Source of the DNA: Acetivibrionales bacterium
GTDB lineage: Bacteria; Bacillota; Clostridia; DSM-8532
Reading direction: 5' to 3'
DNA: 52,396 nt
Assembly (NCBI GenBank): GCA_038249175.1
Contig: JBBRWP010000001.1
Coordinates: 1 to 52,396, forward strand
This document shows, in pieces, positions 16,453 to 40,015 of this stretch; position 1 is the first letter of the stretch, and each line of letters begins with the position of its first letter. Under the pieces are notes generated by a model. It ran no database searches and was not told the DNA's origin. It was given only the letters and a program-made list of their open reading frames with translations. Position numbers and translations under genes: made by a program.

Positions 16453-16678
16453 CAACTTGCATGAAAAACCGAATATCGACTTTTTGCACCAGAATCATTC
16501 TTGATTCTACCGTAATAACCCGAAAATGCTCCAATTTGATGCCAAATCGCGGCGTTATCGGCAGTACAATGCGCCGCATTGTACTGGTAGACCGTGATAT
16601 TAGCCTAAAATTGGGCATTTTCAATCGATTTCGACTCCTGCGGAGTTGAAATCAGGGTTTCTTACACCAGAATCATCC
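16453..16678 (+). repeat. Family-B repeat copy interrupted by an extra segment of about 118 bp (16500-16617) that contains the perfect hairpin CAGTACAATGCG-CC-GCATTGTACTG (16562-16586)
   Basis: The two flanks align to the contiguous copy at 49121-49225. Confidence 0.75.
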
Positions 16679-18820: not shown

Positions 18821-18996
18821 CAAAAAGTCACTTAGTGACTTTTTGGTGCAATTTATCACCAGATAACTTGCACCAGCATTTGCAGAATGCTGGGTAATCG
18901 TGATAATTTGTCCCGGATTGCAACTTTGTTGCAATTCCCCGCAAGAAAACTTGTGGGGAAAAGTCGTGAAACGACTTTCTGGGGTACAATCAGATT
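18821..18996. repeat. Run of six different short perfect or near-perfect hairpins, ending in a family-B copy (18959-18996)
   Basis: CAAAAAGTCAC-TTA-GTGACTTTTTG; GGTGCAA..TTGCACC; CAGCATT-TGCAG-AATGCTG; ATTGCAAC-TTT-GTTGCAAT; CCCCGCAAG-AAAA-CTTGTGGGG; AAAGTCGT-GAA-ACGACTTT. Confidence 0.8.
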
Positions 18997-19502: not shown

Positions 19503-19771
19503 GAGATGAAAACAATGCGTGCGGGTTTGGATCATGTAGGGATGAAAAATGCAAGAAAACTTGCTGAACACGGGATGCAAATATGCGTGCGGGTTTGGAT
19601 CATGTAGGGATGCAAATATGCGAGAAAACTTGCTGCACGCGGGATGAAAACAATGCGAGAAAACTTGCTGAACACGGGATGCAAATATGCGAGAAAACTT
19701 GCTGAACACGGGATGAAACAATACGTGGTCTCTTGCTTAATACGGGATGAATACAATGCATAGGTTGTTGC
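19503..19771 (+). repeat. Eight tandem 33-36-bp units all starting G(G/A)GATG(A/C)AA, in two alternating subtypes (..GCGTGCGGGTTTGGATCATGTA / ..GCGAGAAAACTTGCTGAACAC)
   Basis: Direct reading. Fills most of the divergent intergenic region and ends 20 bp before the rsmF-like start. Confidence 0.9.
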
Positions 19772-19791
19772 TTTATTAGAAAGGGTTTTTC

Positions 19792-22028: not shown

Positions 22029-22272
22029 GTGTCATGGGGACGTGCGTGTGTCATGGGGACGGTGTCATGGGGACGTGTCTATTGGAGTGTAGTGTGTCAT
22101 GGGGACGTGTCTATTGGAGTGTGTCATAGGTGGGGGTGTATGTCATAGGGACGTTTTTATTGGCACAGTCCCTGTGTCACAGGGATAAAAAAGCATGGCA
22201 CTTGTGACACTGGCGTGACAAGAGCACCGTCAAAGTGTCACACAACAAGAGAACCGTACCCATGTCACACAT
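22029..22272. repeat. Dense array of GTGTCA(T/C)(G/A)GGGAC(G) motifs (4 exact GTGTCATGGGGACG at 22029, 22048, 22062, 22094, plus variants), a 17-bp perfect palindrome TCCCTGTGTCACAGGGA (22169-22185) and further GTGACA/TGTCAC words
   Basis: Direct reading. Occupies the whole 270-bp region upstream of the 22290 gene. Confidence 0.85.
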
Positions 22273-22289: not shown

Positions 22290-23591
22290 ATGGAGAAGCA
22301 AACAACAGGTAAACTGACGCTTTTACTGACGGGTATTGTTGCAAGACTAGAAGAAAACTTTGATTATCTGATAGAGATAAAAGGGCACTTTGTTTCGGGT
22401 ACCGTTCAGACCCCCTTTTCGTTTATACCCGAAGGTGGTCTTTTACTGGGCGCAATCGGCGCCGAAAAAAAGACAATACCCTTGGATGTTTTTCAGGAAA
22501 CAGTATTGGCAGAAGCCAAGCGGCAGGACGCCATCATCATGAAAATCATCTATCGTGGCGAAACACAGGTACTTGAATCCAGCCCGCAAATGACTCGGAT
22601 AAAATCGCTTGAACAGGAAGTCCTTTCTGTGTTACAAACCACTGGGGGCTCAACGGGGGATAGCCCAAAGAAAAAAAATACTATTTATGCACAGCAGGCA
22701 AATGCTATTCATGACAGTGGCACGAGCACCCTGATGATGCATCGTAACTATCTGGTGAAGCCGGGCGAAGCAGATGTCCTGCTCAAAGAGATTGGCATTA
22801 TGGCTGAAAACGGAAAGGTCAGAAACGACAGAATTCGGAAGTACAACCAAATTGACCATTTTGTAGAATTATTGTCTCCGATGATAGAAACACTGGCAAA
22901 AGAAAAAAGCGACTTGTTCATCGTGGATTGCGGGTGTGGAAAATCTTATCTTTCTTTTGTTTTGAATTATTACATTCGTGAGATCATGAAAATGAAAGCG
23001 CACATTCTGGGGATCGATATTGCAGAAGGAGTGATTGCCTCCTCGCGGGAAACAGCACGGAAATTACAATATCGCAATATGGACTTTTACTGCGGCAATA
23101 TACGGGAACTCTTCATTGATGGAGAAGGGCCTGTGAAGCGGCAACCGGATCTGGTCATTAGTCTGCACGCCTGTGATGTGGCAACCGACTACGCCCTGGC
23201 TTTTGGTATGCGAAACGGTGCCAGAGCCATCGTGTCCGTTCCTTGTTGTCACCATGAATTTGTCGGTCAAATGAAAAATGAAGGTTTGCTGGAAGATCTT
23301 CTGCGCTTTGGCCCTTTGAAGGCACGGTTTGCGGACACACTGACGGACAGCTTGCGGATGCTGATGTTGGAGGCCGCCGGCTATGAAGTTTCCTGCGTTG
23401 AATGGGTTTCGCCATTGGAAACACCAAAAAATCTAATGATACGGGCCAATCAGAAGACAGAAGGCAATGAGGATAAGCGGAAACGTGTAGAGGAGATTAT
23501 GGTCGAGTACCATCTGCGCTTTACTTTGTATGAAGAGATGCGCGGGTTTTTAGGCAATGGCGCTTTACGAATAGACGGGTCTGCTTATTGA
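22290..23591 (+). CDS. Class I SAM-dependent methyltransferase with N-terminal domain of unknown function
   Basis: Motif I FIVDCGCGKSY and ISLHACDVATD. RBS GAAGGAGG. Confidence 0.65.
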   Translation: MEKQTTGKLTLLLTGIVARLEENFDYLIEIKGHFVSGTVQTPFSFIPEGGLLLGAIGAEKKTIPLDVFQETVLAEAKRQDAIIMKIIYRGETQVLESSPQMTRIKSLEQEVLSVLQTTGGSTGDSPKKKNTIYAQQANAIHDSGTSTLMMHRNYLVKPGEADVLLKEIGIMAENGKVRNDRIRKYNQIDHFVELLSPMIETLAKEKSDLFIVDCGCGKSYLSFVLNYYIREIMKMKAHILGIDIAEGVIASSRETARKLQYRNMDFYCGNIRELFIDGEGPVKRQPDLVISLHACDVATDYALAFGMRNGARAIVSVPCCHHEFVGQMKNEGLLEDLLRFGPLKARFADTLTDSLRMLMLEAAGYEVSCVEWVSPLETPKNLMIRANQKTEGNEDKRKRVEEIMVEYHLRFTLYEEMRGFLGNGALRIDGSAY

Positions 23592-23644
23592 CAGATGCGC
23601 AGGACATTTGTATAATGGGTCGTGCAGTGGAAAACCGCAGAGAT

Positions 23645-23718
23645 GCGGGTGTAGTTCAATGGTAGAACTCCAGCCTTCCAAGCTGGTCGCGTGGGTCCGA
23701 TTCCCATCACCCGCTCCA
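23645..23718 (+). tRNA. tRNA-Gly (anticodon UCC), CCA encoded
   Basis: Cloverleaf read by hand: acceptor GCGGGTG/CACCCGC, D arm GTTC-AATGGTA-GAAC, anticodon arm CCAGC-CTTCCAA-GCTGG, T arm GTGGG-TCCGATT-CCCAT. Confidence 0.92.
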
Positions 23719-23725
23719 TAGAAAA

Positions 23726-23751
23726 GATGCAACGGAAGTTGCGTCTTTTTT
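23726..23751 (+). terminator. Intrinsic terminator after tRNA-Gly
   Basis: GATGCAAC-GGAA-GTTGCGTC followed by TTTTTT. Confidence 0.8.
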
Positions 23752-23810
23752 GTATATGAAATGATTGGTTTCATAGAACCGGTCACATTTATGCTGGGTC
23801 TCTTTTTTGT

Positions 23811-23880
23811 CAGATTTATACCCATGCGTCTTCGTTGTGTTCGCACAAAGCCTGCTGAAAATGCTGCGCATTTTCAGATT
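23811..23880 (-). repeat. REP-A unit, reverse orientation (hairpin 23855-23877)
   Basis: CAGATTTATACCCATGCG...CTGAAAATGC-TGC-GCATTTTCAG. Confidence 0.9.
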
Positions 23881-23997
23881 TTTATCACTGCTTACAAAAA
23901 TAAAAAACGGGCAAATTTGACAAAGCTGTTGAATAAGCGTAGCCTTGAAGAGAGGTATTAGCGGTGATGAATACTATACGATATTGTAAAAATTTTC

Positions 23998-24029
23998 TAG
24001 CCGCTCTTATATAAGAGCGGCTATTTTTT
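23998..24029 (+). terminator. Strong hairpin plus T-run with no obvious upstream gene
   Basis: TAGCCGCTCTTAT-ATAAGAGCGGCTA followed by TTTTTT. Confidence 0.7.
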
Positions 24030-24055
24030 GGGATTATAGACCATGGCTGTGTAAG

Positions 24056-24096
24056 AACCCCGGGTTCTCCCGGAAAGTATTGAAACCGGGGTTTTT
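24056..24096 (+). promoter_or_regulatory. Terminator-like leader structure 55 nt upstream of the glucan-synthase start
   Basis: AACCCCGG (24056-24063) pairs with CCGGGGTT (24086-24093), followed by TTT. A competing local CCGGG/CCCGG pairing is possible. Confidence 0.4.
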
Positions 24097-24151
24097 ATAC
24101 CAGAAACGAACTGAGACACAACAATAAATGAAGATCCAATAGAAAGAAGGT

Positions 24152-27100
24152 ATGCGATTGCAGTATTCAATTTGGATTCCTACGGCAATTTTAGCGTTGT
24201 TGATGTTATCGGTTGTCGTGTTCCTTATGCGCGTCAGAAAAAATAGGGACTTGAACATACGGTATGCTTCTTTGACAGTAGAGGAACTTGAAAAGCGTGC
24301 CAGGAGAATGGCTCAGGATCATACGATTACCGCAAAACATAATGTACTGAATTGGCCAATCACGCGAATGAATGAAAATTACGACCAGATTTTATCGCTT
24401 TACAAAAGTTTGAATGAAGATATCAATCATAAGCGATCCATACCGCCGGCAGCAGAATGGCTGCTCGATAATTTTTATATTATAGAAGAACAGGTAAAAG
24501 GTGTTCGCGGTGCATTAACAAAAAAAAACCATTATCAGTTGCCCGTTCTTAAAAAAGGACCTTTTCAGGGCTATACCCGTGTATTTGCTATAGCCATAGA
24601 GTTTATTTCTTTCGTTGACGGTCAGGTTGAAGAAGGCACCTTGTTAAGATATCTGGAAGCGTACCAATCACACAGCATCCTTTTTGACAGGGAGATTCGT
24701 GTCCTGCCCATTATGATGCGTATCGCTTTGATCGAGCATGTTCGCTTAACCTGCGAAAAGATTAAAGACACCCAGATTGAATGGAATAAGGCAGATGCGA
24801 TTGTAGACAAATATTGGTCTGATGACGTGTCGGATATGGATAAAACAATGTCTCAGTTTAACACTGTGCTTGAAAAGGAGGGTGAAGCCAATCTTTCCTT
24901 TGTTGAGCATTTGATCTACCGGCTAAGAAGGGCAGGCCGAAGTTACTCAAATATTTCAAGGAAGATCGACGATGTGCTGGACAAGTATGGGTTGACCATC
25001 GAACAAATTGCGCAAAGAGAACATAATGCACAAGCTGTCAGTACGGTATCTTTTGGGAATTGCATTATGAGCTTGAAATATGTATCCAACCTGAACTGGA
25101 GTTATTTTTTTGAATGTGCCAGCTATACTGAAAAAATACTGCAAAGTGATCCGGCCGGCGTCTACTTGTTGATGGATGAAACATCACGTGGCTATTATTT
25201 AAGAAAAATTGAGACACTTGCCAGGGAATATGGAATTGCAGAAATTCGCATTGCCAGGAGCGCTGTTGCGTTGGCAGAAACAGCCGCAGCATTCGGAAAT
25301 CCAGAAAATGAACCGCCCAATATGGTTCATCGAAAAACGCATGTTGGCTATTATTTGCTGGGTGAAGGTTTAAAGCAACTGGAAAGTACACAAGCAGGAA
25401 AGATGAACTTCACCACGCGCCTTTCCAAAAATATCAGAAACCATTATGGGTATCTCTATGCGGGATCCATTGTTTTGATCATGGCCATTCTGATACAAAC
25501 CGCAGGTTATTATGGGTATACTCAACTAGAGGGTAAATCGGTATGGTGGATATTGGCGCTACTTGTTGTTGTTTTTATACCGGCATCGGAGATGGCAATT
25601 TCTTTGGTGAATTGGTTGGTGACATTACTGAAGAAACCCGCAATATTTCCAAAAATTGAGTTTAAAGAAGGCATTCCCGTAGAATACAGCACAATGGTGG
25701 TCGTTCCAACGTTATTGAACAATGAAGCACGCGTTGTTGAACTTCTGAAGCGATTGGAAAACCACTATCTTTCCAATCAGGAACAAAACCTCTATTTTGC
25801 ACTATTGGGTGCGTTTAAAGATTCAAAATCCGCCAATTCTGAAGAAGATCTTGAAATTTTACTTGTAGCGGAACGTGGTGTTGAAGCTTTAAATCTACGC
25901 TATGCAAGGGATAGAGCCCCTGTGTTCTATTTTTATCACCGACAGAGTGTCTATAACAAAAACGATCATTACTGGGCAGGCTGGGAGCGTAAAAGAGGTG
26001 CGCTCATGGAGTTTAATGACTTGCTTTTGGGCTCCTCTGAAACGAGTTTTTCGGACTATTTAAACAATGCGATTCCTATTTCAAAAATAAAATATATCAT
26101 CACTTTAGACGCAGATACGATATTACCTTTGGGGATGGCAAAACGGATGATTGGCGCGATGGCCCATCCACTGAATACACCCCTCATTGATCCAGATAAA
26201 GGAATCGTCGTCGATGGATATGGACTAATGCAGCCACGCATTTCATTTGATGTTGAAAGCTCAAATCGTTCCTTGTTTTCAAGAATATTAACAGGTCAAG
26301 AAGGTATGGATCCTTACGCCAGCGCTATTTCCAACGTTTATCAGGACTTATTCGGGGAAGGTGTTTTCACTGGGAAAGGTATTTATGATCTACAAGTGTT
26401 CAACGAGGTTTTGAAGAACGTTATCCCGGAAAATGCTGTTTTAAGCCATGATTTGCTTGAAGGATCATATGTCAGAGCGGCACTGGTTTCTGATTTGGAA
26501 TTGGTGGATGCCTATCCTACGAAATACAATGCCTATATGGCACGGCTTTACAGGTGGGTGCGTGGAGACTGGCAACTACTTCCATGGCTTGGGAAAACGA
26601 TTGCCAATAAAAATCAGCAAACCATTCATAATGCAATTTCAATGCTCTCGAAATGGAAAATTATAGATAATTTAAGAAGAAGTTTAACTGCTCCCTCAAT
26701 TATGGTTTTACTTATTGCTGGATTGAGTATATTGCCTGGAAATCCATTGGTTTGGATTGGATACGGCTTAGCAGCGATGGCGCTGCCACTCTTCATCCAT
26801 ATCTTCAGTGAAGTTTTTATAAATCCACCTGCGCTCAATTGGGTAAAGCGTTATGTTCGCGGTTTTTTTGGGATCAAATCCTCCCTGTTCCAACTCATCA
26901 TGTCCATTGTATTTTTGCCATATCAATCTGTTATGGCTGTCGGTGCTATATGCACGACATTATATCGTGTTCTTTTTTCCAAGAAAAAAATGCTTGAATG
27001 GGTCACATCGGATGATTCGGAAAGACTTCTAAGCAATACACTAATAAGTTATATCCAATCAATGGGACCCAGTCTCAGTCTAGGATTGATCATGGTGCTT

Positions 27101-30100
27101 TTATCTTATCTATCAAAACTGGAGGATATGGTCCTGGCTATACTTTTGGCAGGCATATGGCTTACTTCGCCTGTCATCGCATATTTTATCAGTAAAAACA
27201 GAGAAGAAAAGGATGAGCAGCTGAAACCAGAGGCATACCTGGAACTTAGAAAAATTATGCGAAGGACATGGCGTTATTTTGAAGAGTTTGCCAATGAAAA
27301 AAACAGCTGGCTGGCACCCGATAATTTTCAAGAAGAACCCAATCGTGGTATCGCGTATAGAACCTCTCCGACAAATATCGGATTGGGGCTTCTGGCAACA
27401 TTAACCGCACGGGATATGGGTTATATTGGTACCGTTAAAATGATTGATTTGTTGGGGAAAACCATATCAACAATTGAAAATATGGAGAAGTGGCACGGTC
27501 ATTTGTATAACTGGTATGATACTCGGTCTTGCGAAACACTGAGACCACGATACATATCCACCGTGGATAGTGGCAACTTTGTTGGTTATCTGACAACATT
27601 AGAACAAGGATTAAGAGGATTCTTCCAGCAAACAGTGGTCGATCCGGCATATGTAAGAGGCATTGAAGATACGCTTGCCAATGCGGCCAGTGATGCATCT
27701 GTCATGTCAATCACGGATATTGGGATGAATAAGGCAGCTTTTGAGGGGAAAATTAGCCTCGATGCCTGGTTAGCCGAACTGAATCAAGTACTGAATAATC
27801 CGGTGCTTTTGAGTTTGAAGGATAAACAATGGCATGGTAAGACCCTTCGGCTTGTGCAATCTTTAAAAAGTGATGTACTGAATTTTGCGCCTTGGTTGGA
27901 ACAAATGAATCAAATGCCCGGGGTTTTAATGGATGAAAGTTTGAGGCTATGCACACAGGAACTTCTTGATTTGCTCCTGGAAAATGGAAAAATCATTGAT
28001 TTGCCTGAAAAAAACGCACAAATTCTGACCCAAATAGAAAAAATTCGGCAGATTCACAATGATTCAGACATTAAGGATGCAGAATCAGAGATAAGTGCAA
28101 CTGTATGGTTGGACAATTTGGAAGAAACAGTGAAGTCAGCACAGGAGTTCGTGCAAGGCTTTATGGATAAATTGGAGACAATCATCGACAAAGTAAATCA
28201 GATGTCCATGGCAACGAATTTCCAGGTGCTTTTTGACAACAAGAGACAACTTTTTTCTATTGGGTTCAGTATAGAAGACAATCGCATGTCGAACTCTTAT
28301 TATGACCTGTTGGCATCCGAAGCGAGGCAGACAAGTTATATAGCGATAGCAAGAGGAGAAGTGCCTGTGAAGCATTGGTTTATGCTAGGCAGATCACTCA
28401 CGGTCGTTGATCATTATAAAGGATTGATTTCGTGGAGCGGGACAATGTTTGAATACCTGATGCCGTTGCTGATCATGAAAAGTTATCACAACACGCTGTT
28501 GGATGAAACGTATTCATTCGTCATAAAATGCCAGAAAAAGTATGGGAAAGAGAGAAATATGCCCTGGGGGATGTCAGAATCTGCATTCAATTCATTGGAT
28601 ATTCATCTGGATTATCAATATAAGGCGATTGGTATACCTTGGATTGGACTAAAAAGAGGTCTGATTGAAGATGCTGTTACAGCACCCTATGCCACGTTCC
28701 TGGCATTCATGGTTGCGCCTCTCGAGGCATACAAAAATATGGAAGCTTTAAAGGCGATCAATGCAGAAGGACCTTACGGATACTACGAAGCGGTGGATTA
28801 TACACCTGAAAGACTGGGCTTTGGCAATAAACCAGTCATAATAAAAAGTTATATGGCCCATCATCAGGGAATGAGTTTGCTGGCGCTGACCAACTACTTG
28901 AATAATAATATTATGCAGAAACGATTTTCAGACGATCCATATGTTAACGCTGCAAAGCTGTTGCTTCAGGAAAGAGTTCCGACAAATGCCGTTTTAAGTA
29001 AAGAGAATATAGAAAAAATTATGCCATTCAAAGGCACAGTATATAAAGAAAAGGCCGTATCCAGAAGTTTTACCAAAATGAATTCCCCCCTGCCAATGGC
29101 TCATATTTTGTCGAATGGCAGTTATTTCGTGATGCTCACGGATAAAGGTACCGGGTACAGCAAAAGTAAAACACTCGCAGTCACAAGATGGCGTGAAGAT
29201 CCTGTGGTGGATAATTATGGTATGTTCTTCTATGTGAAAAACAAAAGCACGAACCAGACATGGTCATCGACGTATTCTCCAGTGAAAACACAGCCGGATA
29301 CTTATGAAGTTGTTTATCAAGCGGACAAGGCTGTTTATAAAAGGACTGATGAAAATATTGAGACGACAACGGAAGTCATCGTAACGTCATCGGATGCAGC
29401 TGAAGTACGAAGAATAAAACTGAAAAATACCGGGCTGGAAACATCGTTGCTGGAAATAACAAGTTATTTTGAAGTGGTTCTGGCACCTCAAAATAGTGAT
29501 GTGGCGCATTCAGCATTCAGTAACTTATTTGTTGAAACGGAGTACAATAAGGATTTGAATGTACTTTTAGCCCATAGACGTCCTAGGAGTACGGAGGATA
29601 ACCCCGTATGGGTTGCACATATGGCTGTGAACGAAGGTGAAACGTTTGGAGAATTGCAGGTTGAAACAGATCGTGCCCAATTCATCGGGCGTGGCCGCAC
29701 TGTGGAAAATCCGATCATGATAGAACGGGATAAGCCATTATCCAATACGGTTGGAACAGTATTGGATCCCGTTTTAAGCATGCGGATTAAATTGAAGATA
29801 GATGGCGGGAAGTCAGTTAGAGTTTCCTTTGTGACCATGATGGCCAATAGTAAAGAAGAAATTATGGAATTAATTATTAAATACAAAAACCTGGAAACGT
29901 GCGATGCTTCGTTTTGGATGGCAATGGCAATGAGTGAAGTTGAAGCGAAATATCTGAATATCAAAGCAGCCGATATGGAAATATACCAAAATATGATCAA
30001 AGACATCCTCTATATCAGTCCTGTAAGAAGGATGAATCATCAAATGATTTCCCAAAACCATAAAGGCCAAACCTCTTTATGGGCATATGGTGTTTCGGGA

Positions 30101-32926
30101 GATTTTCCCATAGTCCTGGTCATTCTGGATAAAACAGATGAAGTTGAGATTTTGTTTGAATTACTCAAAGCGCAAGAATTCTGGCGGATAAAGGATCTGA
30201 AAGTCAATCTGGTTATTCTGATAAAAGAAGAAAACAGTTACACAAATCCATTATCGTCCCTGGTGAAAGAAATCGTCTACGACAGTCAGGTCAGTGGTGC
30301 CCAAAACAATCCGGGAGACATTTTCATCCTTAATGCCAACAATATGGCAGATGGCGATGTGGATCTGATGACAGTAAGTGCACGCTTGATTTTCCTGGGA
30401 GATGGCAGAACAATGGAGCAACAGCTAAATGTTGAACTGCTTTCTGAGCAGATGCCAATCATGGAAAAAGCGACGATGCTTGCACTGGATATTCAGAATA
30501 ATGCGCTTGAACCACTCATTCAAGTGCGTCAATACCTTCATTATTTTAATGACGTGGGTGGTTTTAGTGAAAATGGTGAGTGCTACATCATACAACTTGA
30601 AAATGAACAAACGACACCGGCGCCATGGTCAAATATCATCTCGAATCCCGAGTTTGGATTTATGGTAACTGAGTCCGGGGGTGGCTATACCTGGAGCGGT
30701 AACAGCCGCGAAAACAAGCTGACGCCATGGAGCAACGATGCCGTCAGCGATTCGCCGGGTGAAACGTTCTACATTCGTGATGAATCGCTGGATGTCTGGT
30801 CTATAACACCACAGCCGATTCGGGAAAAAGAACCGTATAAAATAGAACATGGCTTTGGATATACAACATTTCAGCATGCAAGCCATGGCATCCATCAAAA
30901 ACTGGTACAATTTGTACCACTGAAAGGTCGCATTAAAATTAACATCATTGATCTGAAAAATGAAGGGAATGTGCCTAGAAATTTGTGGATAACCTATTAT
31001 GCGACGCCGGTTTTGGGTGTTGAACCAGGTGTGACTGGCATGCATCTAAAGAGTTCGATACTGGAAGCAGGTCCCTTAATCGTTGAAAATCCCTATAACC
31101 AGGAATATATTGGTGAAATGATGTACATGGATGTATCCACAAACAACAGAACCGTTACGGGTGACCGTCATGCGTTTTATGGTCAGGGACATTCAAATGC
31201 TATGGAACCATTAAAACTTACGGGACTTTCAGGAACAGTGGGTGCGGGTTACAACACTTGTATGGCTATGCAGACACAAGTATCCATTGCACCTGGTGAA
31301 ACGTGCAAGATTGTTTTTGTTCTTGGCATGGGTCAGAATGAAGAGGCCGTTGTAGAAGAATCCAGGAAATATCTTTCATATGATGTTGCACTGGAAGCAT
31401 TGAATAATGTGATTACATTTTGGAAAGAGAAACTGCAAATTATTCAGGTAAGTACCCCGGAATCGTCGATGAATTTGATGATGAACGGATGGCTTCTTTA
31501 TCAGACCATTTCATGTCGTTTATGGAGTCGATCCGCATTTTATCAATCGGGAGGGGCCTATGGTTTTCGTGACCAGCTTCAGGATTGTCTTTCTGTGGCA
31601 CATGTTTGGCCTCAAATAACAAGAGAACAGATACTAAAACATGCACAGCACCAATTTAAAGAAGGAGATGTACTGCACTGGTGGCATGAACCAAGCAATA
31701 AAGGCATGAGAACCCGTATCTCAGATGATTATTTATGGCTGCCCTTTGTCACGGCTGAATATATCAAGATTTCAGGGGACGCGGCTATTCTGGATTGTGA
31801 AGTGCCTTTTGTCGTCGATGAACTTTTGAAGGATTATGAAGATGAAAAATACTGTTCGCCGAGAGTCTCCGAGGAAATGGAAACCCTCTACACACATTGT
31901 ATACTGTCTTTAGAGCATGGCCTCAATTTTGGGATAAATGGATTGCCCCTCATGGGTACAGGAGATTGGAACGACGGGATGAACACGGTTGGCAATAAAC
32001 AAAAAGGGGAGAGCGTTTGGCTGGCATGGTTTCTATATGTGACACTTCAAAAATTTATACCTATTTGTATAAAAAAGGGTGATGCAGAACGTGCACACCA
32101 TTACCAGGAAATTTGTGAAAATCTTATCGCTGCTGTTGAAACAGTTGCCTGGGATGGTGAGTGGTATAAACGTGCATTTTTTGATAATGGCGATTCTTTG
32201 GGATCGATTCAAAACAGTGAATGTAAAATTGATTCTCTTGCTCAAACCTGGGCTGTTCTTTCGGGTGCTGCAAATAAAGAAAGAGCAGAAAGAGCCATGC
32301 ATTCACTTGAAGAATACCTTGTCATGAAAGAAGAAGGTTTAATCAAACTGCTGACACCCCCGTTTAATGATGGCAATCTGGAGCCGGGCTATATCAAGGG
32401 CTATGTACCTGGGGTCCGAGAAAATGGCGGTCAGTATACACATGCTGCAACATGGGTCATCGCAGCCTTTGCAAAACTCGGCAATGGCGACAAAGCCCTT
32501 GAATTATTCGGCCTGATCAACCCAATCAATCACACGCGAACCGACCATGAAGTTTCAGTCTATAAAGTGGAACCTTATGTATTGGCAGCAGACGTTTACA
32601 GTGCTTATCCGCATGTAGGAAGAGGGGGGTGGACCTGGTATACGGGCTCATCCAGCTGGATGTATAAAGTGGGGGTTGAAAGTATACTCGGTTTTAACAA
32701 AGAGGGCAGCACGTTGATGATTGAACCATGTATCCCCAAAAAATGGGCGGATTTTTATATGAAATACCGGTATATCGATACGACATATGAAATTAAAGTT
32801 CTGAATCCAAACAACATGAGTCATGGGGTAGAAAGAACAACGCTTGATGGAATTGTTCAAGAGGATCATAAAATATCCTTGATCAATGATGGTGGAAATC
32901 ATTGGGTTGAAGTTGTTATGGGATAA
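24152..32926 (+). CDS. cgs: Cyclic beta-1,2-glucan synthase-like giant protein (N-terminal TM/GT84 glycosyltransferase, central alpha-helical glucan-processing domain, C-terminal GH94 phosphorylase domain)
   Basis: AAEWLLDNFYIIEEQ; ITLDADTILP; SHDLLEG; RWVRGDWQ; TSPTNIGLGLLA; GH94-type FRDQLQD, HWWHE, GDWNDGMN, ENGGQYTHAATW. Several TM segments. 2924 aa uninterrupted. Confidence 0.85.
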   Translation: MRLQYSIWIPTAILALLMLSVVVFLMRVRKNRDLNIRYASLTVEELEKRARRMAQDHTITAKHNVLNWPITRMNENYDQILSLYKSLNEDINHKRSIPPAAEWLLDNFYIIEEQVKGVRGALTKKNHYQLPVLKKGPFQGYTRVFAIAIEFISFVDGQVEEGTLLRYLEAYQSHSILFDREIRVLPIMMRIALIEHVRLTCEKIKDTQIEWNKADAIVDKYWSDDVSDMDKTMSQFNTVLEKEGEANLSFVEHLIYRLRRAGRSYSNISRKIDDVLDKYGLTIEQIAQREHNAQAVSTVSFGNCIMSLKYVSNLNWSYFFECASYTEKILQSDPAGVYLLMDETSRGYYLRKIETLAREYGIAEIRIARSAVALAETAAAFGNPENEPPNMVHRKTHVGYYLLGEGLKQLESTQAGKMNFTTRLSKNIRNHYGYLYAGSIVLIMAILIQTAGYYGYTQLEGKSVWWILALLVVVFIPASEMAISLVNWLVTLLKKPAIFPKIEFKEGIPVEYSTMVVVPTLLNNEARVVELLKRLENHYLSNQEQNLYFALLGAFKDSKSANSEEDLEILLVAERGVEALNLRYARDRAPVFYFYHRQSVYNKNDHYWAGWERKRGALMEFNDLLLGSSETSFSDYLNNAIPISKIKYIITLDADTILPLGMAKRMIGAMAHPLNTPLIDPDKGIVVDGYGLMQPRISFDVESSNRSLFSRILTGQEGMDPYASAISNVYQDLFGEGVFTGKGIYDLQVFNEVLKNVIPENAVLSHDLLEGSYVRAALVSDLELVDAYPTKYNAYMARLYRWVRGDWQLLPWLGKTIANKNQQTIHNAISMLSKWKIIDNLRRSLTAPSIMVLLIAGLSILPGNPLVWIGYGLAAMALPLFIHIFSEVFINPPALNWVKRYVRGFFGIKSSLFQLIMSIVFLPYQSVMAVGAICTTLYRVLFSKKKMLEWVTSDDSERLLSNTLISYIQSMGPSLSLGLIMVLLSYLSKLEDMVLAILLAGIWLTSPVIAYFISKNREEKDEQLKPEAYLELRKIMRRTWRYFEEFANEKNSWLAPDNFQEEPNRGIAYRTSPTNIGLGLLATLTARDMGYIGTVKMIDLLGKTISTIENMEKWHGHLYNWYDTRSCETLRPRYISTVDSGNFVGYLTTLEQGLRGFFQQTVVDPAYVRGIEDTLANAASDASVMSITDIGMNKAAFEGKISLDAWLAELNQVLNNPVLLSLKDKQWHGKTLRLVQSLKSDVLNFAPWLEQMNQMPGVLMDESLRLCTQELLDLLLENGKIIDLPEKNAQILTQIEKIRQIHNDSDIKDAESEISATVWLDNLEETVKSAQEFVQGFMDKLETIIDKVNQMSMATNFQVLFDNKRQLFSIGFSIEDNRMSNSYYDLLASEARQTSYIAIARGEVPVKHWFMLGRSLTVVDHYKGLISWSGTMFEYLMPLLIMKSYHNTLLDETYSFVIKCQKKYGKERNMPWGMSESAFNSLDIHLDYQYKAIGIPWIGLKRGLIEDAVTAPYATFLAFMVAPLEAYKNMEALKAINAEGPYGYYEAVDYTPERLGFGNKPVIIKSYMAHHQGMSLLALTNYLNNNIMQKRFSDDPYVNAAKLLLQERVPTNAVLSKENIEKIMPFKGTVYKEKAVSRSFTKMNSPLPMAHILSNGSYFVMLTDKGTGYSKSKTLAVTRWREDPVVDNYGMFFYVKNKSTNQTWSSTYSPVKTQPDTYEVVYQADKAVYKRTDENIETTTEVIVTSSDAAEVRRIKLKNTGLETSLLEITSYFEVVLAPQNSDVAHSAFSNLFVETEYNKDLNVLLAHRRPRSTEDNPVWVAHMAVNEGETFGELQVETDRAQFIGRGRTVENPIMIERDKPLSNTVGTVLDPVLSMRIKLKIDGGKSVRVSFVTMMANSKEEIMELIIKYKNLETCDASFWMAMAMSEVEAKYLNIKAADMEIYQNMIKDILYISPVRRMNHQMISQNHKGQTSLWAYGVSGDFPIVLVILDKTDEVEILFELLKAQEFWRIKDLKVNLVILIKEENSYTNPLSSLVKEIVYDSQVSGAQNNPGDIFILNANNMADGDVDLMTVSARLIFLGDGRTMEQQLNVELLSEQMPIMEKATMLALDIQNNALEPLIQVRQYLHYFNDVGGFSENGECYIIQLENEQTTPAPWSNIISNPEFGFMVTESGGGYTWSGNSRENKLTPWSNDAVSDSPGETFYIRDESLDVWSITPQPIREKEPYKIEHGFGYTTFQHASHGIHQKLVQFVPLKGRIKINIIDLKNEGNVPRNLWITYYATPVLGVEPGVTGMHLKSSILEAGPLIVENPYNQEYIGEMMYMDVSTNNRTVTGDRHAFYGQGHSNAMEPLKLTGLSGTVGAGYNTCMAMQTQVSIAPGETCKIVFVLGMGQNEEAVVEESRKYLSYDVALEALNNVITFWKEKLQIIQVSTPESSMNLMMNGWLLYQTISCRLWSRSAFYQSGGAYGFRDQLQDCLSVAHVWPQITREQILKHAQHQFKEGDVLHWWHEPSNKGMRTRISDDYLWLPFVTAEYIKISGDAAILDCEVPFVVDELLKDYEDEKYCSPRVSEEMETLYTHCILSLEHGLNFGINGLPLMGTGDWNDGMNTVGNKQKGESVWLAWFLYVTLQKFIPICIKKGDAERAHHYQEICENLIAAVETVAWDGEWYKRAFFDNGDSLGSIQNSECKIDSLAQTWAVLSGAANKERAERAMHSLEEYLVMKEEGLIKLLTPPFNDGNLEPGYIKGYVPGVRENGGQYTHAATWVIAAFAKLGNGDKALELFGLINPINHTRTDHEVSVYKVEPYVLAADVYSAYPHVGRGGWTWYTGSSSWMYKVGVESILGFNKEGSTLMIEPCIPKKWADFYMKYRYIDTTYEIKVLNPNNMSHGVERTTLDGIVQEDHKISLINDGGNHWVEVVMG

Positions 32927-32961
32927 TCTGTATCGCTAATGGACACATTAATGCTGTTGAG

Positions 32962-33019
32962 CCAGCAGCACCTATCCGAACAACTCTCGTGGGAATGACC
33001 ATTCCCTGCACCAGCTGCA
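32962..33019 (+). pseudogene. Decayed partial copy of the tRNA-Gly 3' half (anticodon arm to acceptor/CCA)
   Basis: CCAGC..TCCGAA..TCTCGTGGG..ATTCCC..CACCAGCTGCA aligns by eye to tRNA positions 23670-23718. No 5' acceptor or D arm is present. Confidence 0.5.
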
Positions 33020-33026
33020 AAAGAAA

Positions 33027-33053
33027 GCGTAACATAAGTTGCGTCTTTTTTTT
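33027..33053 (+). terminator. Terminator after the glucan-synthase gene, related in sequence to the tRNA-Gly terminator
   Basis: GCGTAAC-ATAA-GTTGCGT(C) plus T8. Shares the 16-nt core AAGTTGCGTCTTTTTT with 23735-23751. Confidence 0.7.
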
Positions 33054-33217
33054 GTACATGAGTAAGGATGTGTTATGATAAGGATAAATAATCATCTTGT
33101 GAAAAGGTACACTTTGCTTTGACTTGTTGTAGACACAGTGATATGTGTGCTGTATGCTGAAGGTTATTGAAAGAAATACAGTTACTTTATTTTTGTTGTA
33201 TACCGGGAGGAAATACT

Positions 33218-35161
33218 ATGGATTTCATTCGTATTGCAACAGCATCACCAGCGCTTCGTGTCGCAGATGTGCAATATAACATTGAAAATATGTGTACATT
33301 AGCCACACAAGCCAGAGAAGCAGGGGTTCAGATTGTTTTGTTCCCGGAGCTTTGTGTGACGGCTTACTCCTGCGCAGATTTATTTCGACAATCCATTTTG
33401 CTGGAAACTGCTGAAGAGGGTGTTGCAAGTTTCGTTGCTGCATTTCAGGATTGGGAAGGCATACTGGTTTTTGGTGCACCAATCGCTATGGACGGGCGAA
33501 TATACAACTGTGCTATTGTAGCGCAGGACGGAAAGATTTGTGGTATAGTACCCAAAACACACATTCCCGGGAATAACGAGTATTACGAACCACGTTGGTT
33601 CTCTCCGGCGATGTCTTGCAACCGTGGAATGATAGTGTATGCCGGCTTTGAAGTGCCTATTGGTGCCGATATCCTGTTTCCTCTTGAAGATGAACCCAAT
33701 GCCGTTATTGGTATTGAAATCTGCGAAGATTTGTGGATGCCTGTTCCGCCAAGTAGTCTGCAGGCACGCGCAGGAGCAACAATACTGATGAATTTATCCG
33801 CGTCTAATGAGTTGGTGGGTAAGGCGGACTATCGTCGCAGCCTTGTTCTAAATCAATCAGCACGATGCCTCGGAATATATGCCTACGCGTCAGCCAATCC
33901 CGGTGAGTCAACAACGGATACAGTTTTTGGTGGTCATATGCTTATAGCGGAAGGCGGGCATTTGCTTGCTGAATCATCCCGTTTTGAAACAGCTGGTACC
34001 CTGCTCATTGCAGACGTTGATGTGGACAGGATGGCCCATGACAGACAGAATATGGGTTCCTTTCATCAAACGCTGAAAATGGATGCTACGACGCCTGTCT
34101 GGCGCAGTGTGTTTTTAGAATTGGCTTGTACGAAAGAAGATTCATTGTTCAGAAAAAACGATTCTCAGCCTTTTGTCCCCCAGAATCCAGCTGTGCGAGA
34201 AGCACGCTGTCAGGAAATCCTCGCAATTCAGACGGCCGGTTTAGCCAAACGCCTGATTCATACAGGACTGAAAAGACTTGTGGTTGGTGTTTCCGGCGGT
34301 TTGGACTCCACGTTGGCCTTAATCGTGGCCGCACGCACGATGGATCGCCTGCATTTGCCGCGAGAAAATGTCCTGGCTGTAACAATGCCCGGGTTTGGAA
34401 CGACGGACAGAACCTACCAAAATGCGCTGGCGCTGATTGAAAGTCTGAATGCAGAGAAAAAGGAAATACCCATTGTTGAGGCTTCCTTGCTGCATTTTCG
34501 AGATATCGGACACGATCCGAAAATTCATAATGTCACTTATGAGAATGTACAGGCAAGGGAACGCACACAAATACTAATGGATCTGTCCAACCTTAACGCA
34601 GGGTTGTTGGTTGGAACTGGCGATCTTTCTGAACTGGCACTGGGATGGTGTACCTATAACGGTGACCACATGTCCATGTATGCCGTAAATACCGGCGTGC
34701 CCAAAACACTTGTCCAATATCTTGTGGGATGGTACGCAGATCATGAAGCCGGTGAGAACTCAAAGCATATTTTGCTTGATATTTTAGCAACGCCAATCAG
34801 CCCTGAACTCCTCCCGCCAGGTGAAAATGGTGAAATTGAACAGAAAACAGAAGATGTTATCGGCCCTTATCTGTTACACGATTTTTTCCTGTTTCACTTT
34901 GTGCGGTATGGTGCAGAACCCCGTAAAATCCTGCGTTTGGCTTGTGATGCTTTTGCAGGAACGTATGAAAAGCATGAGATCAAGAAATGGCTGCAAGTGT
35001 TTATCCGGCGGTTTTTTTCACAACAATTCAAACGTTCCTGCTTGCCTGATGGGCCCAAAGTTGGCACCATCAGCCTTTCACCAAGGGCGGATTGGCGTAT
35101 GCCCAGTGATGCATCAGCGGCACTTTGGCTAGCCGATTTGGAGAGATCGGATGAATCCTAG
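33218..35161 (+). CDS. nadE: Glutamine-dependent NAD+ synthetase (CN-hydrolase + NAD synthetase domains)
   Basis: IGIEICEDLW nitrilase-type Cys; PP-loop GVSGGLDSTLAL. GGGAGG before ATG 33218. Confidence 0.88.
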   Translation: MDFIRIATASPALRVADVQYNIENMCTLATQAREAGVQIVLFPELCVTAYSCADLFRQSILLETAEEGVASFVAAFQDWEGILVFGAPIAMDGRIYNCAIVAQDGKICGIVPKTHIPGNNEYYEPRWFSPAMSCNRGMIVYAGFEVPIGADILFPLEDEPNAVIGIEICEDLWMPVPPSSLQARAGATILMNLSASNELVGKADYRRSLVLNQSARCLGIYAYASANPGESTTDTVFGGHMLIAEGGHLLAESSRFETAGTLLIADVDVDRMAHDRQNMGSFHQTLKMDATTPVWRSVFLELACTKEDSLFRKNDSQPFVPQNPAVREARCQEILAIQTAGLAKRLIHTGLKRLVVGVSGGLDSTLALIVAARTMDRLHLPRENVLAVTMPGFGTTDRTYQNALALIESLNAEKKEIPIVEASLLHFRDIGHDPKIHNVTYENVQARERTQILMDLSNLNAGLLVGTGDLSELALGWCTYNGDHMSMYAVNTGVPKTLVQYLVGWYADHEAGENSKHILLDILATPISPELLPPGENGEIEQKTEDVIGPYLLHDFFLFHFVRYGAEPRKILRLACDAFAGTYEKHEIKKWLQVFIRRFFSQQFKRSCLPDGPKVGTISLSPRADWRMPSDASAALWLADLERSDES

Positions 35162-35223
35162 ACCTTACTGGCAATACATCGAGGCATCTTTATCATAGTG
35201 ATGTGCATAAGAGAAGAGGGTTT

Positions 35224-36056: not shown

Positions 36057-36150
36057 TTTTTAACAGAAGCAATGGTGCTTGTCTCAAAAACAATGGACAA
36101 GCTCTTTTTGTGTCATGAGAACCCTTCCAAAATTGAGAGGAGAACCTATA

Positions 36151-37857
36151 ATGAGAAAAACAAGAACCCTGCTCGCGTTTCTACTTGTGTTCGCGATGGC
36201 CATCAGTTTTGTTGCATGTGGCAACGCTACTGACACAACACCCACGCCCACAGCATCAGCTGAAGCCACGGCTACCCCTGCTGCCGGGGGCGGCGATGCA
36301 ACTGCCGGAGGCGTCCTTAACGTCATGATTGAAGTCGAAGTCTCCAGCCTTGATCCCCAGCTTGCCACCGATGGCACCAGCTTCGAGGTCATCGCGAACT
36401 ATACAGATGGCCTCATGCAAATGGATGCAACCGGTAAATCTGTTCCCGCCATCGCCGAGAGCGTTGACGTGAGTGCCGACGGTCTTACCTACACTTTCAA
36501 ACTGCAGAAGGATGCAAAGTGGAGCAACGGTACCCCTGTGACTGCCGACGACTTTGTGTTTGGCTGGCAGCGCGCCGCTGACCCGGCTAACGCATCCGAA
36601 TATTCCTACATGCTCAGCGACATCGGTCAAATCAAGAACGCCGCTGAAATCATCGCAGGCACAAAGCCTGTCACCGATTTGGGTGTGAAGGCTGTGGATG
36701 AGAAAACACTCGAGGTTTCGCTCCTTGTGCCGGTATCCTACTTTGACAGCCTCATGTACTTTCCGACCTTCTACCCGGTTAACCGCGCTTTTTATGATAA
36801 ATTGGCTACCGGCACTTTCGGCACCAGCCCGGAAACCGTCCTTAGCAACGGTGCATTTAAGCTTGAAAGCTACGAGCCGGCTGCCTTGGCGTTCAGCCTT
36901 GTGAAGAACCCCGACTACTTCAATGCTGCTGCCGTAAAACTGGACGGACTTAGTTATCAGGTCGTAAAAGACAGCCAACAGGCGTTCCTGAGCTATCAGA
37001 ACGGCAACCTGGATATCGTTAAACTCAGTGGCGATCAGGTAGATCAAGTGACGGGAGACCCGGAACTTAAGGTTGTCGGTGCAGGTTACCTGTGGTACCT
37101 GACCATGAACGGTAAAGATGTAGCAGCTCTTGGCAATGCCAACATGCGTCTTGCCATCACCAATGCTGTGAATCGTGCAGTCATCGTCAAGGATGTTATC
37201 AAGGACGGTTCTGTTGCTACCTACACCAGCGTTCCTCCGCAGTTTGCCACCGGTCCGGACGGCACAGATTTCAGTGCTGACCAAACCGCGTTCGCTGACG
37301 TTTGCTCAGATGATCCTGCAAAAGCGTTGCAATTTTATGAAAAAGCCAAAGCAGAGTTGGGTCAAGACACGTTCACTTTTGAGTTATTGCTCGAAGACCA
37401 AACTGAAACCCAAAACACGGCTGCTGTGCTAAAGGAACAGATTGAAAACGCACTACCGGGTGTCACCCTGAACCTCAAGGTGGAACCGAAGAAACAGCGT
37501 GTAGAAGACATCCAAAACGGCAACTACGAAGTATGTCTCACACGCTGGGGACCAGACTATGCCGATCCAATGACCTATCTTGGCATGTGGGTCACCGGCA
37601 ACAGCAACAACTATGGTCTGTGGAGCAATGCCGAATACGATCAGTTAATCGCAGACTGCACCACCGGCAAATACATCACAGATGCCAAAGCTCGCTGGGA
37701 AGCCATGTTCAAAGCTGAGAAAATCACCATGGACGAGGCAGTCATTGCTCCGCTCTATACCAAAGCGGATGCCAACATGATCAAGTCCACTATTTCGGGC
37801 ATTGAATTCCATCCTGTGGCACTCAACCGTGTCTACAAAAACGCATCAAAGAAATAA
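36151..37857 (+). CDS. oppA: Oligopeptide ABC transporter substrate-binding lipoprotein
   Basis: Signal peptide with lipobox FVACG. Family-5 SBP length and motifs. RBS GAGAGGAG. Confidence 0.85.
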   Translation: MRKTRTLLAFLLVFAMAISFVACGNATDTTPTPTASAEATATPAAGGGDATAGGVLNVMIEVEVSSLDPQLATDGTSFEVIANYTDGLMQMDATGKSVPAIAESVDVSADGLTYTFKLQKDAKWSNGTPVTADDFVFGWQRAADPANASEYSYMLSDIGQIKNAAEIIAGTKPVTDLGVKAVDEKTLEVSLLVPVSYFDSLMYFPTFYPVNRAFYDKLATGTFGTSPETVLSNGAFKLESYEPAALAFSLVKNPDYFNAAAVKLDGLSYQVVKDSQQAFLSYQNGNLDIVKLSGDQVDQVTGDPELKVVGAGYLWYLTMNGKDVAALGNANMRLAITNAVNRAVIVKDVIKDGSVATYTSVPPQFATGPDGTDFSADQTAFADVCSDDPAKALQFYEKAKAELGQDTFTFELLLEDQTETQNTAAVLKEQIENALPGVTLNLKVEPKKQRVEDIQNGNYEVCLTRWGPDYADPMTYLGMWVTGNSNNYGLWSNAEYDQLIADCTTGKYITDAKARWEAMFKAEKITMDEAVIAPLYTKADANMIKSTISGIEFHPVALNRVYKNASKK

Positions 37858-37890
37858 GTAAGTAAGTTCCTGCTAAAACATATCTTTCAT

Positions 37891-37932
37891 CGCGCAGCGG
37901 CTTTGGCGTTATAACGAAGCCGCTGCGCGTTT
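37891..37932 (+). terminator. 13-bp-stem hairpin plus TTT between oppA and oppB (partial terminator or stabiliser)
   Basis: CGCGCAGCGGCTT-(loop)-AAGCCGCTGCGCG TTT. Confidence 0.65.
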
Positions 37933-37961
37933 GCAGTTTCACAACGAAAAGAGGGAATGGC

Positions 37962-38963
37962 GTGAAAAGCTTTATATTCAAGCGGATTCTCATCTCGGTG
38001 TTCACCCTTTTGGCGATCACCTTGTTACTGTTTCTTCTGCTTCAGTTGATGCCCGGTTCGCCCTTTAATGACGAAAAGCTCAACGATGACCAACGTGCGG
38101 TTCTAAATACCAAATATGGCCTTGATCAACCTTTGCCTGTTCAATTTTGTAAATATGTATTGAATCTGGTCAAGGGAGATTTTGGTGTCAGCTACAACAT
38201 CAGCAAAAATACGCCCATCAGCCAGTTGGTACAATCCCGTATTCCAGCCAGCGTCAAGGTTGGCGGCATGGCGGTCAGTCTTGGGGCGCTTACTGGTTTG
38301 CTGCTTGGCATCGTTGCAGCGCTGAAGCGGGGTACTTTTTGGGACAGTCTTTCTACAGTTATCTCCGTATTGGGGGTTTCGGTTCCGAGTTATGTATTTG
38401 CGCTCGCGTTAAGCTATTTTGTTGGTTTTAAACTCAATTTGCTGCCCATGCTATATAACATGAAAGAGCCATTTGCATCGATCATATTACCGAGCATTGC
38501 CCTGTCCATGTTTACAATGGCTTCCATAGCACGGTTTACGCGCAATGAGATGTTGGAGGTGCTTGGCAGCGAATATATGCTTTTGGCTGAAAGTAAAGGG
38601 ATTAGCGGTGCACCACTAATCCTGCGACATGCGCTCAGAAACGCACTCATCCCTATTGTTACGGTTCTTGCACCGCTTATCGTAGACCTCATCACAGGGA
38701 GCCTTGTGGTCGAGAAGATTTTCTCCATTCCTGGCATTGGCAGCCTGTTGGTCACGGCCATCCAATCCAACGACTACAATGTTGTTATCGCACTCAGCTT
38801 CATCTATAGTGCGCTTTACATCGCCATCATGCTGGTTGTGGATATCCTTTACGGTCTTATCGATCCGCGAATCCGCCTTTCAAAGGAAGGTGGCGCCCCT
38901 GGCAGACCCGGGTTTATCACGCGCTGGGCACGTGTCCTGCGTCCAAAAAGAAAGGCGGTGTAG
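37962..38963 (+). CDS. oppB: Oligopeptide ABC transporter permease
   Basis: BPD_transp_1-type permease; EAA-like region SKGISGAPLILRHALRNALIP. GTG start. Confidence 0.85.
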   Translation: MKSFIFKRILISVFTLLAITLLLFLLLQLMPGSPFNDEKLNDDQRAVLNTKYGLDQPLPVQFCKYVLNLVKGDFGVSYNISKNTPISQLVQSRIPASVKVGGMAVSLGALTGLLLGIVAALKRGTFWDSLSTVISVLGVSVPSYVFALALSYFVGFKLNLLPMLYNMKEPFASIILPSIALSMFTMASIARFTRNEMLEVLGSEYMLLAESKGISGAPLILRHALRNALIPIVTVLAPLIVDLITGSLVVEKIFSIPGIGSLLVTAIQSNDYNVVIALSFIYSALYIAIMLVVDILYGLIDPRIRLSKEGGAPGRPGFITRWARVLRPKRKAV

Positions 38964-38964
38964 C

Positions 38965-39999: not shown

Positions 40000-40015
40000 G
40001 AAGGAGGGATTATCC

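Follow-up and report, generated by a model that had tools for sequence, protein, structure and literature searches.

Background

Genomic islands integrated into tRNA genes can be mapped, as the Islander approach does, from an intact tRNA gene and a displaced fragment of its 3' part, and among such islands the anticodon-centered class is the commonest, with 2083 of 3919 (PMC4383910). Islander filters for lengths of 2 to 200 kb and requires an integrase gene (PMC4383910). In this report, we describe a segment of about 9.3 kb that has much the same anatomy but no integrase gene. It lies in a stretch of 52,396 nucleotides from Acetivibrionales bacterium (assembly GCA_038249175.1, contig JBBRWP010000001.1, positions 1 to 52,396 of the forward strand), which we refer to as the window, and it holds one very large gene, cgs, whose product (Cgs) is predicted to be a synthase of cyclic beta-1,2-glucan.

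Like the islands of Islander, the segment has an intact tRNA at one end and, downstream, a 3' fragment in the same orientation that reaches the tRNA end; its length is within the accepted range, the anticodon loop is where its homology becomes detectable, and its composition is anomalous. As in islands recognized by comparative means, it is absent from the orthologous site of relatives, its gene product is incongruent with the backbone, and its composition deviates from that of the host, if modestly. Unlike the Islander islands, it carries no integrase gene and a cargo of a single gene, its tRNA fragment has diverged to 73% identity, and the repeat includes the tRNA terminator.

A second point of comparison is provided by the cis-mobilizable elements (CIMEs) described in Streptococcus thermophilus, remnants of integrative elements that are flanked by attachment (att) sites and lack recombination and conjugation modules. 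Like them, the segment sits at a conserved chromosomal site between direct repeats of att type and has neither integrase nor transfer genes. It differs in that decay makes its distal repeat an unlikely substrate and in that its lineage is not known to have a cognate integrative element. It is best called a degenerate tRNA-linked islet, CIME-like in anatomy and without the internal integrase of a canonical island. Islets of this kind are already known, and this one is a further member.

Cyclic beta-1,2-glucans are known mainly from host-interacting Proteobacteria. The cyclization domain of the cyclic glucan synthase (CGS) of Thermoanaerobacter italicus has been characterized (PMC10834661). The predicted Cgs of the window resembles this enzyme and the Cgs/NdvB/ChvB synthases, with a full-length match to PDB 8rf0 and 8rf9 and a GH94 phosphorylase-type C-terminus; its host, in contrast, is an uncultured sediment lineage of Clostridia. 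An initial annotation of the window had interpreted the segment as a horizontally acquired islet, and our analyses support that interpretation. For the joint claim, that this is an acquired, degenerate tRNA-linked islet inserted by site-specific recombination, we estimate a probability of about 0.65.

Results and discussion

The 3' half of tRNA-Gly and its terminator are repeated beyond cgs

ARAGORN found a single tRNA in the whole window, the tRNA-Gly(UCC) at the proximal end of the islet (Table 1). Its sequence is identical to that of the tRNA at two related loci, L088 and L091, and in L091 the similarity extends upstream, from the -10 hexamer into the leader (85% over 33 nt, L091 389-421 against 23610-23642). 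The initial annotation had aligned the 3' half of this tRNA and its terminator by eye to sequence downstream of the giant gene, and the repeat proves to be robust: 23674-23759 recurs at 32971-33061, downstream and on the same strand, where the tRNA portion corresponds to tRNA positions 30-74. Local alignment of 23645-23770 with 32941-33075 gave a score of 46, compared to 14.7 +/- 2.2 for shuffled sequences, none of which reached 46 in 2000 trials; under gentler scoring the aligned block grew to 23674-23775 against 32971-33080 (z = 18.4, 0 of 3000 shuffles as high), the proximal copy extending to 23775 through weak similarity only. Across the two scoring schemes, z-scores ranged from 14 to 18.

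The limits of the repeat were examined part by part. The 5' half of the tRNA is not repeated in the distal region (z = -1), and the 'CCAGC' match formerly placed in the anticodon stem is thus without support. The T-arm and acceptor (z = 4.6) and the terminator region after the tRNA (z = 9.8) do recur, and no similarity was found between the sequences beyond the repeat, 23760-23900 and 33063-33218 (z = 0.8). Homology can be detected from the anticodon loop onward (CCT-TCCAAG against CCTATCCGAA), a boundary that is blurred by decay.

Divergence is unevenly distributed along the repeat. The tRNA part is 73% identical, the spacer with the 5' arm and loop of the terminator 56%, whereas the 3' arm, the T-run and the following GTAYATGA are 96% identical (23 of 24; Fisher p = 0.009 for the contrast between blocks). 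The 3' arm and T-run are identical in the two copies, which share a 16-mer, AAGTTGCGTCTTTTTT, that occurs only twice, at 23736 (to 23751) and at 33036. Each copy folds into a terminator hairpin; the changes in the distal 5' arm are transitions, and pairing with the unchanged 3' arm is kept, a pattern that would fit selection on the distal hairpin. Strong conservation of the 3' arm is better explained by reuse as the terminator of cgs, or by a role as recombination core, than by uniform decay.

The tRNA-like fragment is no longer recognizable as a tRNA, as it received no ARAGORN call and matched no Rfam family. The distal copy is present at a depth of about 13 in the metagenome, that is, in single copy, and is therefore not a dispersed repeat. 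We take it to be the displaced one; spacers downstream of the tRNA in related loci have diverged too far to tell which of the two copies in the window is native.

The islet is absent from the same site in relatives

The gene that follows the islet is nadE, and the nearest group of NadE proteins among 5.8 billion proteins is 67-74% identical to that of the window. Five syntenic loci were read from this group (L085, L086/L087, L088 and L091); a pattern-based scan of GTDB genomes with NadE had returned relatives of at most 56% identity only, missing the group. All five loci have one single tRNA-Gly(UCC), identical to that of the window or differing by 1 nt, at a distance of 128-395 nt upstream of nadE; no gene separates the two, and there is no cgs. 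Whether tRNA-Gly is directly followed by nadE in relatives had been proposed as a synteny check. It is so in five of five, and the 9.3 kb was therefore inserted in the lineage of the window. The distance from the end of the displaced tRNA fragment to the start of nadE, 199 nt, falls inside the range of the relatives.

The surrounding backbone is conserved. The order dihydroorotate dehydrogenase B (DHODB) Fe-S subunit, PyrD, conserved protein, RsmF, pseudouridine synthase, Methyltransf_32, NadE, DUF554 and prolyl-tRNA synthetase (ProRS) is found in L085, L086 and L088, and the genes shared with the window are 50-86% identical at the amino acid level. Collinearity extends from 15660 to ProRS at 42210 in these three loci, and in L086 starts at 12817, where a hydrogenase-like gene and the gene after it are also matched. 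The methyltransferase that precedes the tRNA has orthologs at the same position in all three (55-57% identity).

The window's ProRS places this backbone: it is 84-87% identical to the syntenic group, then about 78% identical to metagenome-assembled genomes (MAGs) labeled Acetivibrionales or Clostridiaceae. No ProRS from a genome named Fusibacter is among the best 120 matches, a list made up of cluster representatives, which hide members such as the 86%-identical ProRS of L085.

Cgs belongs to a Fusibacter-like clade

The architecture of the product is that of a complete synthase, with an N-terminal membrane and glycosyltransferase region, a cyclization region and a C-terminal GH94 catalytic domain (residues 2423-2847), and with a size that agrees with the roughly 2800-2900 residues expected; in the database copy, TTG 24158 serves as the start, giving 2922 residues. 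Cgs matches the cyclic beta-1,2-glucan synthases 8rf0 and 8rf9 over its full length, in two stretches (E = 0, 1854 bits), and its residues 1020-1620 match PDB 8wy1, deposited as 'Glycosyltransferase 36'. No NCBIfam model matched the protein, for which synthesis of cyclic beta-1,2-glucan is the function predicted from these similarities. Exact look-ups of the Cgs and of the methyltransferase of the window gave no entry.

The closest relatives of Cgs, P0002-P0008, with Fusibacter sp. 3D3 among them, are 67-73% identical over their full length (70-73% for P0002-P0006). In a bootstrapped neighbor-joining tree of 44 proteins, Cgs lies within the clade of P0002-P0008 (100%), as sister to P0002 and Fusibacter sp. 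3D3 (97%), with P0004-P0008 outside. A scan of metagenomes with an alignment of the Cgs N-terminus added one locus only, at 52%. In the four loci read from the Fusibacter-like clade (L081-L084), G+C is 35-39%, no tRNA is present within 10 kb, and the gene resides in other surroundings, either DUF6198 ... cgs ... CLC channel or YibE_F - cgs - ABC permeases, each in two genomes. A phylogeny of the giant protein had been called for in the initial annotation, and its outcome favors a transfer. Incongruence is measured here as the Cgs tree against the nearest matches of backbone proteins, with an approximate host taxonomy, and the conflict points to acquisition of cgs from a Fusibacter-like lineage.

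Promoter and leader came with the gene

Homology to the Fusibacter-like loci does not stop at the start codon. The 240 nt upstream of cgs (23912-24151) align with the upstream regions of L081-L084 and of L094, an outgroup that is 62% identical; the gene therefore came with its own promoter and leader. The promoter has a -35 box TTGACA at 23917-23922 and a -10 box at 23940-23945. It is followed by a hairpin (23955-23959/23970-23974) whose stem has 5 bp in the window and 5-7 bp across loci, with a conserved loop GCGGTGAY, and then by an intrinsic terminator (23998-24023 and a T-run). Conservation and covariation were assessed on six sequences: the stem covaries (AU/GC, CG/UA), and the terminator shows compensatory changes. 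The window has a further hairpin at 24056-24093. No Rfam family matched the leader. A search with a 13-mer that allowed 3 mismatches gave no useful information, being too permissive.

From these features, the leader is a candidate attenuator or riboswitch-like element. One could go further and regard it as a new, unclassified cis-regulatory RNA that controls cyclic-glucan synthesis by transcription attenuation, within a self-contained, integrase-less cassette put in at tRNA-Gly by a recombinase acting in trans; this broader proposal is tentative, and we would not favor it. A conserved cgs leader outside the Rfam families is the most novel lead of this analysis, and offers a handle on cgs regulation.

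The unit appears to end without a terminator of its own. The terminator scan found no terminator-like site in the 100 nt that separate the cgs stop from the displaced tRNA terminator, while four of six related cgs loci (L083, L084, L093 and L094) have an inverted repeat within about 100-110 nt of the stop, identified by eye only. The transferred unit thus comprises promoter, leader and cgs, about 9.0 kb, and cgs may have co-opted the displaced tRNA terminator, which would have been preserved because it is the only candidate terminator for the gene.

Table 1. Features of the islet and its borders, in window coordinates unless a locus is named
Feature	Position	Strand	Basis
Left native flank, Methyltransf_32-family methyltransferase gene	22290-23591	+	Pfam PF13679
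tRNA-Gly promoter, TTGACA-17-TATAAT, 12/12 consensus, sigma-70-type	23588-23616	+	Consensus scan
Intact tRNA-Gly(UCC), proximal end of the islet	23645-23718	+	ARAGORN; Rfam RF00005, 68.3 bits
Proximal direct-repeat copy: anticodon loop, tRNA 3' end, terminator and 8 nt	23674-23759	+	Alignments, shuffles
tRNA-Gly intrinsic terminator, GATGCAAC GGAA GTTGCGTC + T6	23726-23751	+	RNA fold -18.3 kcal/mol, z = -6.1
Native REP-like intergenic repeat copy inside the islet	about 23801-23885	+	BLAST; repeat families D3, D5, D10
cgs promoter and leader, arrived with the gene	23912-24035	+	Alignment with L081-L084 and L094; covarying pairs; terminator scan, fold
Aligned leader regions	window 23912-24093; L081 9820-9950; L082 9751-9881; L083 9804-9934; L084 9821-9951; L094 about 5880-6000
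cgs, 2924 aa from ATG 24152	24152-32926	+	Pfam GH94 supersandwich, GH94 catalytic and Glycoamylase domains
Displaced, presumably decayed tRNA-Gly 3' fragment, anticodon loop to CCA	32971-33019	+	73% identity, 3-nt T-loop insertion
Distal copy of the tRNA terminator, first terminator past the cgs stop	33027-33052	+	Terminator scan; fold -13.2 kcal/mol
Right native flank nadE, glutamine-dependent NAD+ synthase	33218-35161	+	Pfam CN_hydrolase, NAD_synthase

Composition of the islet and a native repeat within it

The G+C content of 23719-33060 is 41.5%, compared to 47.2% in the rest of the window. For cgs it is 41.6%, with a G+C fraction at third codon positions (GC3) of 0.405 (0.37-0.44 in nine chunks), against 0.50 +/- 0.046 in the 26 other genes of the window (Mann-Whitney p = 3e-5 for the nine chunks). 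The giant gene does differ from its neighbors, as the composition check was meant to establish, and the islet is more AT-rich, as had been said; the size of the effect had been overstated, since the gap is about 6 points and not 11-18, and the 30-37% G+C formerly sampled is too low. The deviation from the host is a modest one. Two native neighbors are also on the low side in GC3 (nadE 0.43, DUF554 0.39). As a rough consistency check, a GC3 of 0.35-0.39, that of the sister clade, would at the roughly 27% divergence of the unconstrained tRNA fragment have moved about a quarter of the way toward 0.50, to about 0.40 as observed.

A copy of a native intergenic repeat, resembling repetitive extragenic palindromic (REP) sequences, lies between the proximal repeat and the cgs promoter, and is 86-89% identical by BLAST to copies at 1299-1381, 7643-7847 and 15384-15582. 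In the source metagenome run, X1, its core has a depth of about 3300 against 13 for unique sequence, and must therefore exist in very many copies. Neither REP copies nor tRNA-Gly fragments were found near cgs in the Fusibacter-like loci. The repeat, native to the genome of the window and absent from those loci, therefore entered the islet after its arrival, as the initial annotation had supposed.

The insertion in metagenome runs

Near-identical sequence is present in four further public runs, and contigs derived from cgs were found in all four of X1-X4. The right junction, that is, the end of cgs, the displaced tRNA fragment and nadE, lies inside single contigs in X1 and X3, the latter an independent assembly from another sample (contig 32891-33292); two or more of the populations sampled therefore carry the insertion. 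Depth in X1 is even, about 13x, over the methyltransferase, cgs and nadE. Among the best-supported joints listed for the contigs of the four metagenome runs, none was an excision joint.

How the islet may have been inserted

We propose that the incoming DNA was a circle of Fusibacter-like, low-G+C Clostridia ancestry, which would have carried one transcription unit (promoter, leader and cgs) and an attP-like copy of the tRNA-Gly(UCC) 3' half with its terminator. Recombination with the chromosomal tRNA-Gly would have occurred in or close to the anticodon loop, or else within the terminator-proximal core: homology is detectable from the anticodon loop, yet the 96% block in the terminator could be the core, the boundary being blurred by decay. 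The exchange was most likely site-specific, of the tyrosine-integrase type. It would have regenerated an intact tRNA-Gly at the left, and the other 3' half would have come to lie, with its terminator, beside nadE, about 9.3 kb farther downstream. The recombination module may later have been deleted, or it may have acted in trans without ever belonging to the insert. Decay would have left the displaced tRNA fragment with 73% identity and an indel of 3 nt, while its terminator was kept, probably as that of cgs, which would account for the 96% identity of the 3' arm and U-tract and for the pairing-preserving transitions of the 5' arm; the native REP-like repeat would have entered the stretch that separates the cgs promoter from the left att copy.

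The terminator is informative as to the type of exchange. Terminator hairpins differ among the relatives and are thus lineage-specific; the presence of this one in the repeat implies that the incoming DNA already bore host-type sequence, as would an element excised from a close relative, and this favors site-specific recombination.

Several observations weigh against an integrase-mediated insertion of foreign DNA, or soften its support. No integrase or other mobility gene, or fragment of one, was found anywhere in the 52 kb: Pfam scanning of 26 open reading frames (ORFs) of the window revealed no integrase family (two ORFs had no family at all), cgs is the sole long ORF of the islet, and ORFs of at least 20 aa in its non-coding ends, which the Pfam scan did not cover, contained nothing integrase-like by eye and look like noise. 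The att copy, REP, leader and cgs leave under about 120 nt of the islet unassigned, and a former integrase would therefore need to have been removed very cleanly; its action and its loss are both our inference. The identity block extends about 40 nt past the tRNA end; in many tRNA islands it is shorter, and homologous recombination would fit this length equally well. At the left junction, the REP core of 45 nt is not spanned by the short unitigs of the source run. Taken by itself, composition is weak evidence, as G+C in the host clade ranges from 40 to 57% and the closest NadE relative, L091, has 40%. Relatives were compared at the tRNA-Gly-nadE site only, and the host lineage is placed taxonomically from a few named MAG matches.

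The main rival explanation keeps the insertion and changes the enzyme. A circular or linear fragment, anchored at the conserved tRNA, would have entered by RecA-dependent Campbell-type or homology-facilitated illegitimate recombination, and an integrase would never have been involved. The missing integrase, the near absence of spare DNA and a repeat of about 90-100 nt that runs past the tRNA into the terminator are all as this explanation would have it. The anchor it requires is widespread, tRNA-Gly being near-identical in distant Firmicutes (98.7% to a copy on a Brevibacillus plasmid, for example); in a megablast of 23000-35200 against plasmids, the tRNA gave the only match. A foreign donor is not expected to carry the lineage-specific terminator, however, so that host-like sequence would be needed on it beforehand; a homology of about 100 nt is rather short for RecA to recombine efficiently, and the start of homology at the anticodon loop coincides with a preferred crossover sublocation of integrases. 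We consider this route unlikely, if clearly the best of the alternatives to site-specific insertion.

Two further scenarios agree poorly with the data. The tRNA-Gly and its terminator might have been duplicated locally in tandem, with cgs, native or foreign, landing between the copies later and the 5' half of the second copy being removed. Tandem tRNA duplicates are common in bacteria, and local tandem repeats abound in the window. The scenario nonetheless takes two events and a deletion that ends exactly at the anticodon loop, leaves unexplained why the insert runs precisely from promoter to stop, and finds a single tRNA-Gly at this site in all five related loci; it is improbable. Still less credible is that cgs is ancestral at the site and was lost in the relatives, its composition reflecting constraints on the protein itself. 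The relatives represent four independent lineages and are distant (NadE 67-74%), and GC1 and GC2 of cgs (first and second codon positions) are low too, in part an effect of amino acid content. GC3 is low as well, Cgs and its leader nest in a clade from unrelated contexts, and a clean loss is not expected to leave an intact tRNA before nadE everywhere while the window has a duplicated fragment. An artefact, be it chance similarity or a chimeric metagenome assembly at the tRNA and REP repeats, two points at which the source run's Logan unitigs are interrupted, can practically be dismissed given an alignment score above every shuffle, even depth of about 13x, single contigs across the right junction in X1 and X3, and a REP core of about 45 nt, under read length.

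Implications of an acquired cgs

The site-specific insertion that we favor makes the islet a clean, well-bounded case in which a single very large gene, with its regulatory leader, crosses orders of Clostridia and settles at a tRNA gene, leaving only an att scar as evidence of the transfer; the displaced tRNA terminator may have been reused by the incoming gene. A cross-order transfer of one 9-kb gene with terminator reuse is neat but not surprising. In practical terms, the cgs of this sediment bacterium should be annotated as acquired, and island finders that demand an integrase will miss such islets. A selectable role, for example in osmoadaptation or envelope function, is suggested by the finding that the acquired cgs of this free-living anaerobe is intact and population-wide.

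Other features of the window and of the related loci

The backbone varies at other points. L085, L086 and L088 have a glyoxalase gene before tRNA-Gly that is missing from the 52 kb of the window (site 23591-23645), and all relatives read have an RlmA-like methyltransferase gene on the opposite strand after nadE that is likewise missing (site 35161-35203). An Opp/Dpp-type ATP-binding cassette (ABC) operon at 36079-42155, with SBP_bac_5, two permeases and two ATPases, separates DUF554 from ProRS. Different genes, or none at all (L088), occupy this place in relatives, which makes it a second variable spot of the backbone. The 5' end of the second ATPase gene of this operon contains an in-frame 33-nt tandem repeat of 4.9 copies (41107-41268). 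In L091, an array of a roughly 14-nt unit (GAGACGATATAATA-like) occupies 700-860 between tRNA-Gly and nadE, and the spacer is therefore a hotspot for other insertions or expansions. The syntenic block of L088 is abutted by the BREX (bacteriophage exclusion) genes brxA, brxB and brxC (1-1612).

Repeats are numerous in the window. The REP-like repeat, also reminiscent of miniature inverted-repeat transposable elements (MITEs), is about 65-80 nt long with a hairpin core CTGAAAATGCKSCGCATTTTCAG, has no match among Rfam families, and occurs at 1299-1381, 2138-2171, 2595-2628, 7639-7847 (three tandem copies), 15384-15589 (two) and 23801-23885. A second small dispersed repeat with a hairpin (GAAAAGTCGTGTAACGACTTTC...), found at 1-35, 16463-16497, 18958-18992 and 49129-49163, is possibly a shared terminator-type element. 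A tandem array of 29 copies of a 10-nt unit, CTTTTCGTGT, with a super-period of 60 nt, lies at 9350-9639, where it adjoins a LysM-protein gene and overlaps only mechanically called ORFs. Further intergenic tandem repeats are located at 1469-1566, 12646-12857, 19515-19773, 22046-22163 and 43736-43957, with units of 11/22, 73, 34-35, 32-46 and 65 nt; arrays often reside just upstream of genes (the hydrogenase-like gene at 12817, RsmF at 19792, Methyltransf_32 at 22290) or downstream of ProRS.

Finally, the label 'hnd' given earlier to genes near the start of the window is borne out by the cluster at 1660-6229, of the NADH-dependent, electron-bifurcating [FeFe] hydrogenase type, which encodes a 2Fe-2S thioredoxin-like protein, a Nuo51-like protein and the large subunit of an Fe-only hydrogenase.

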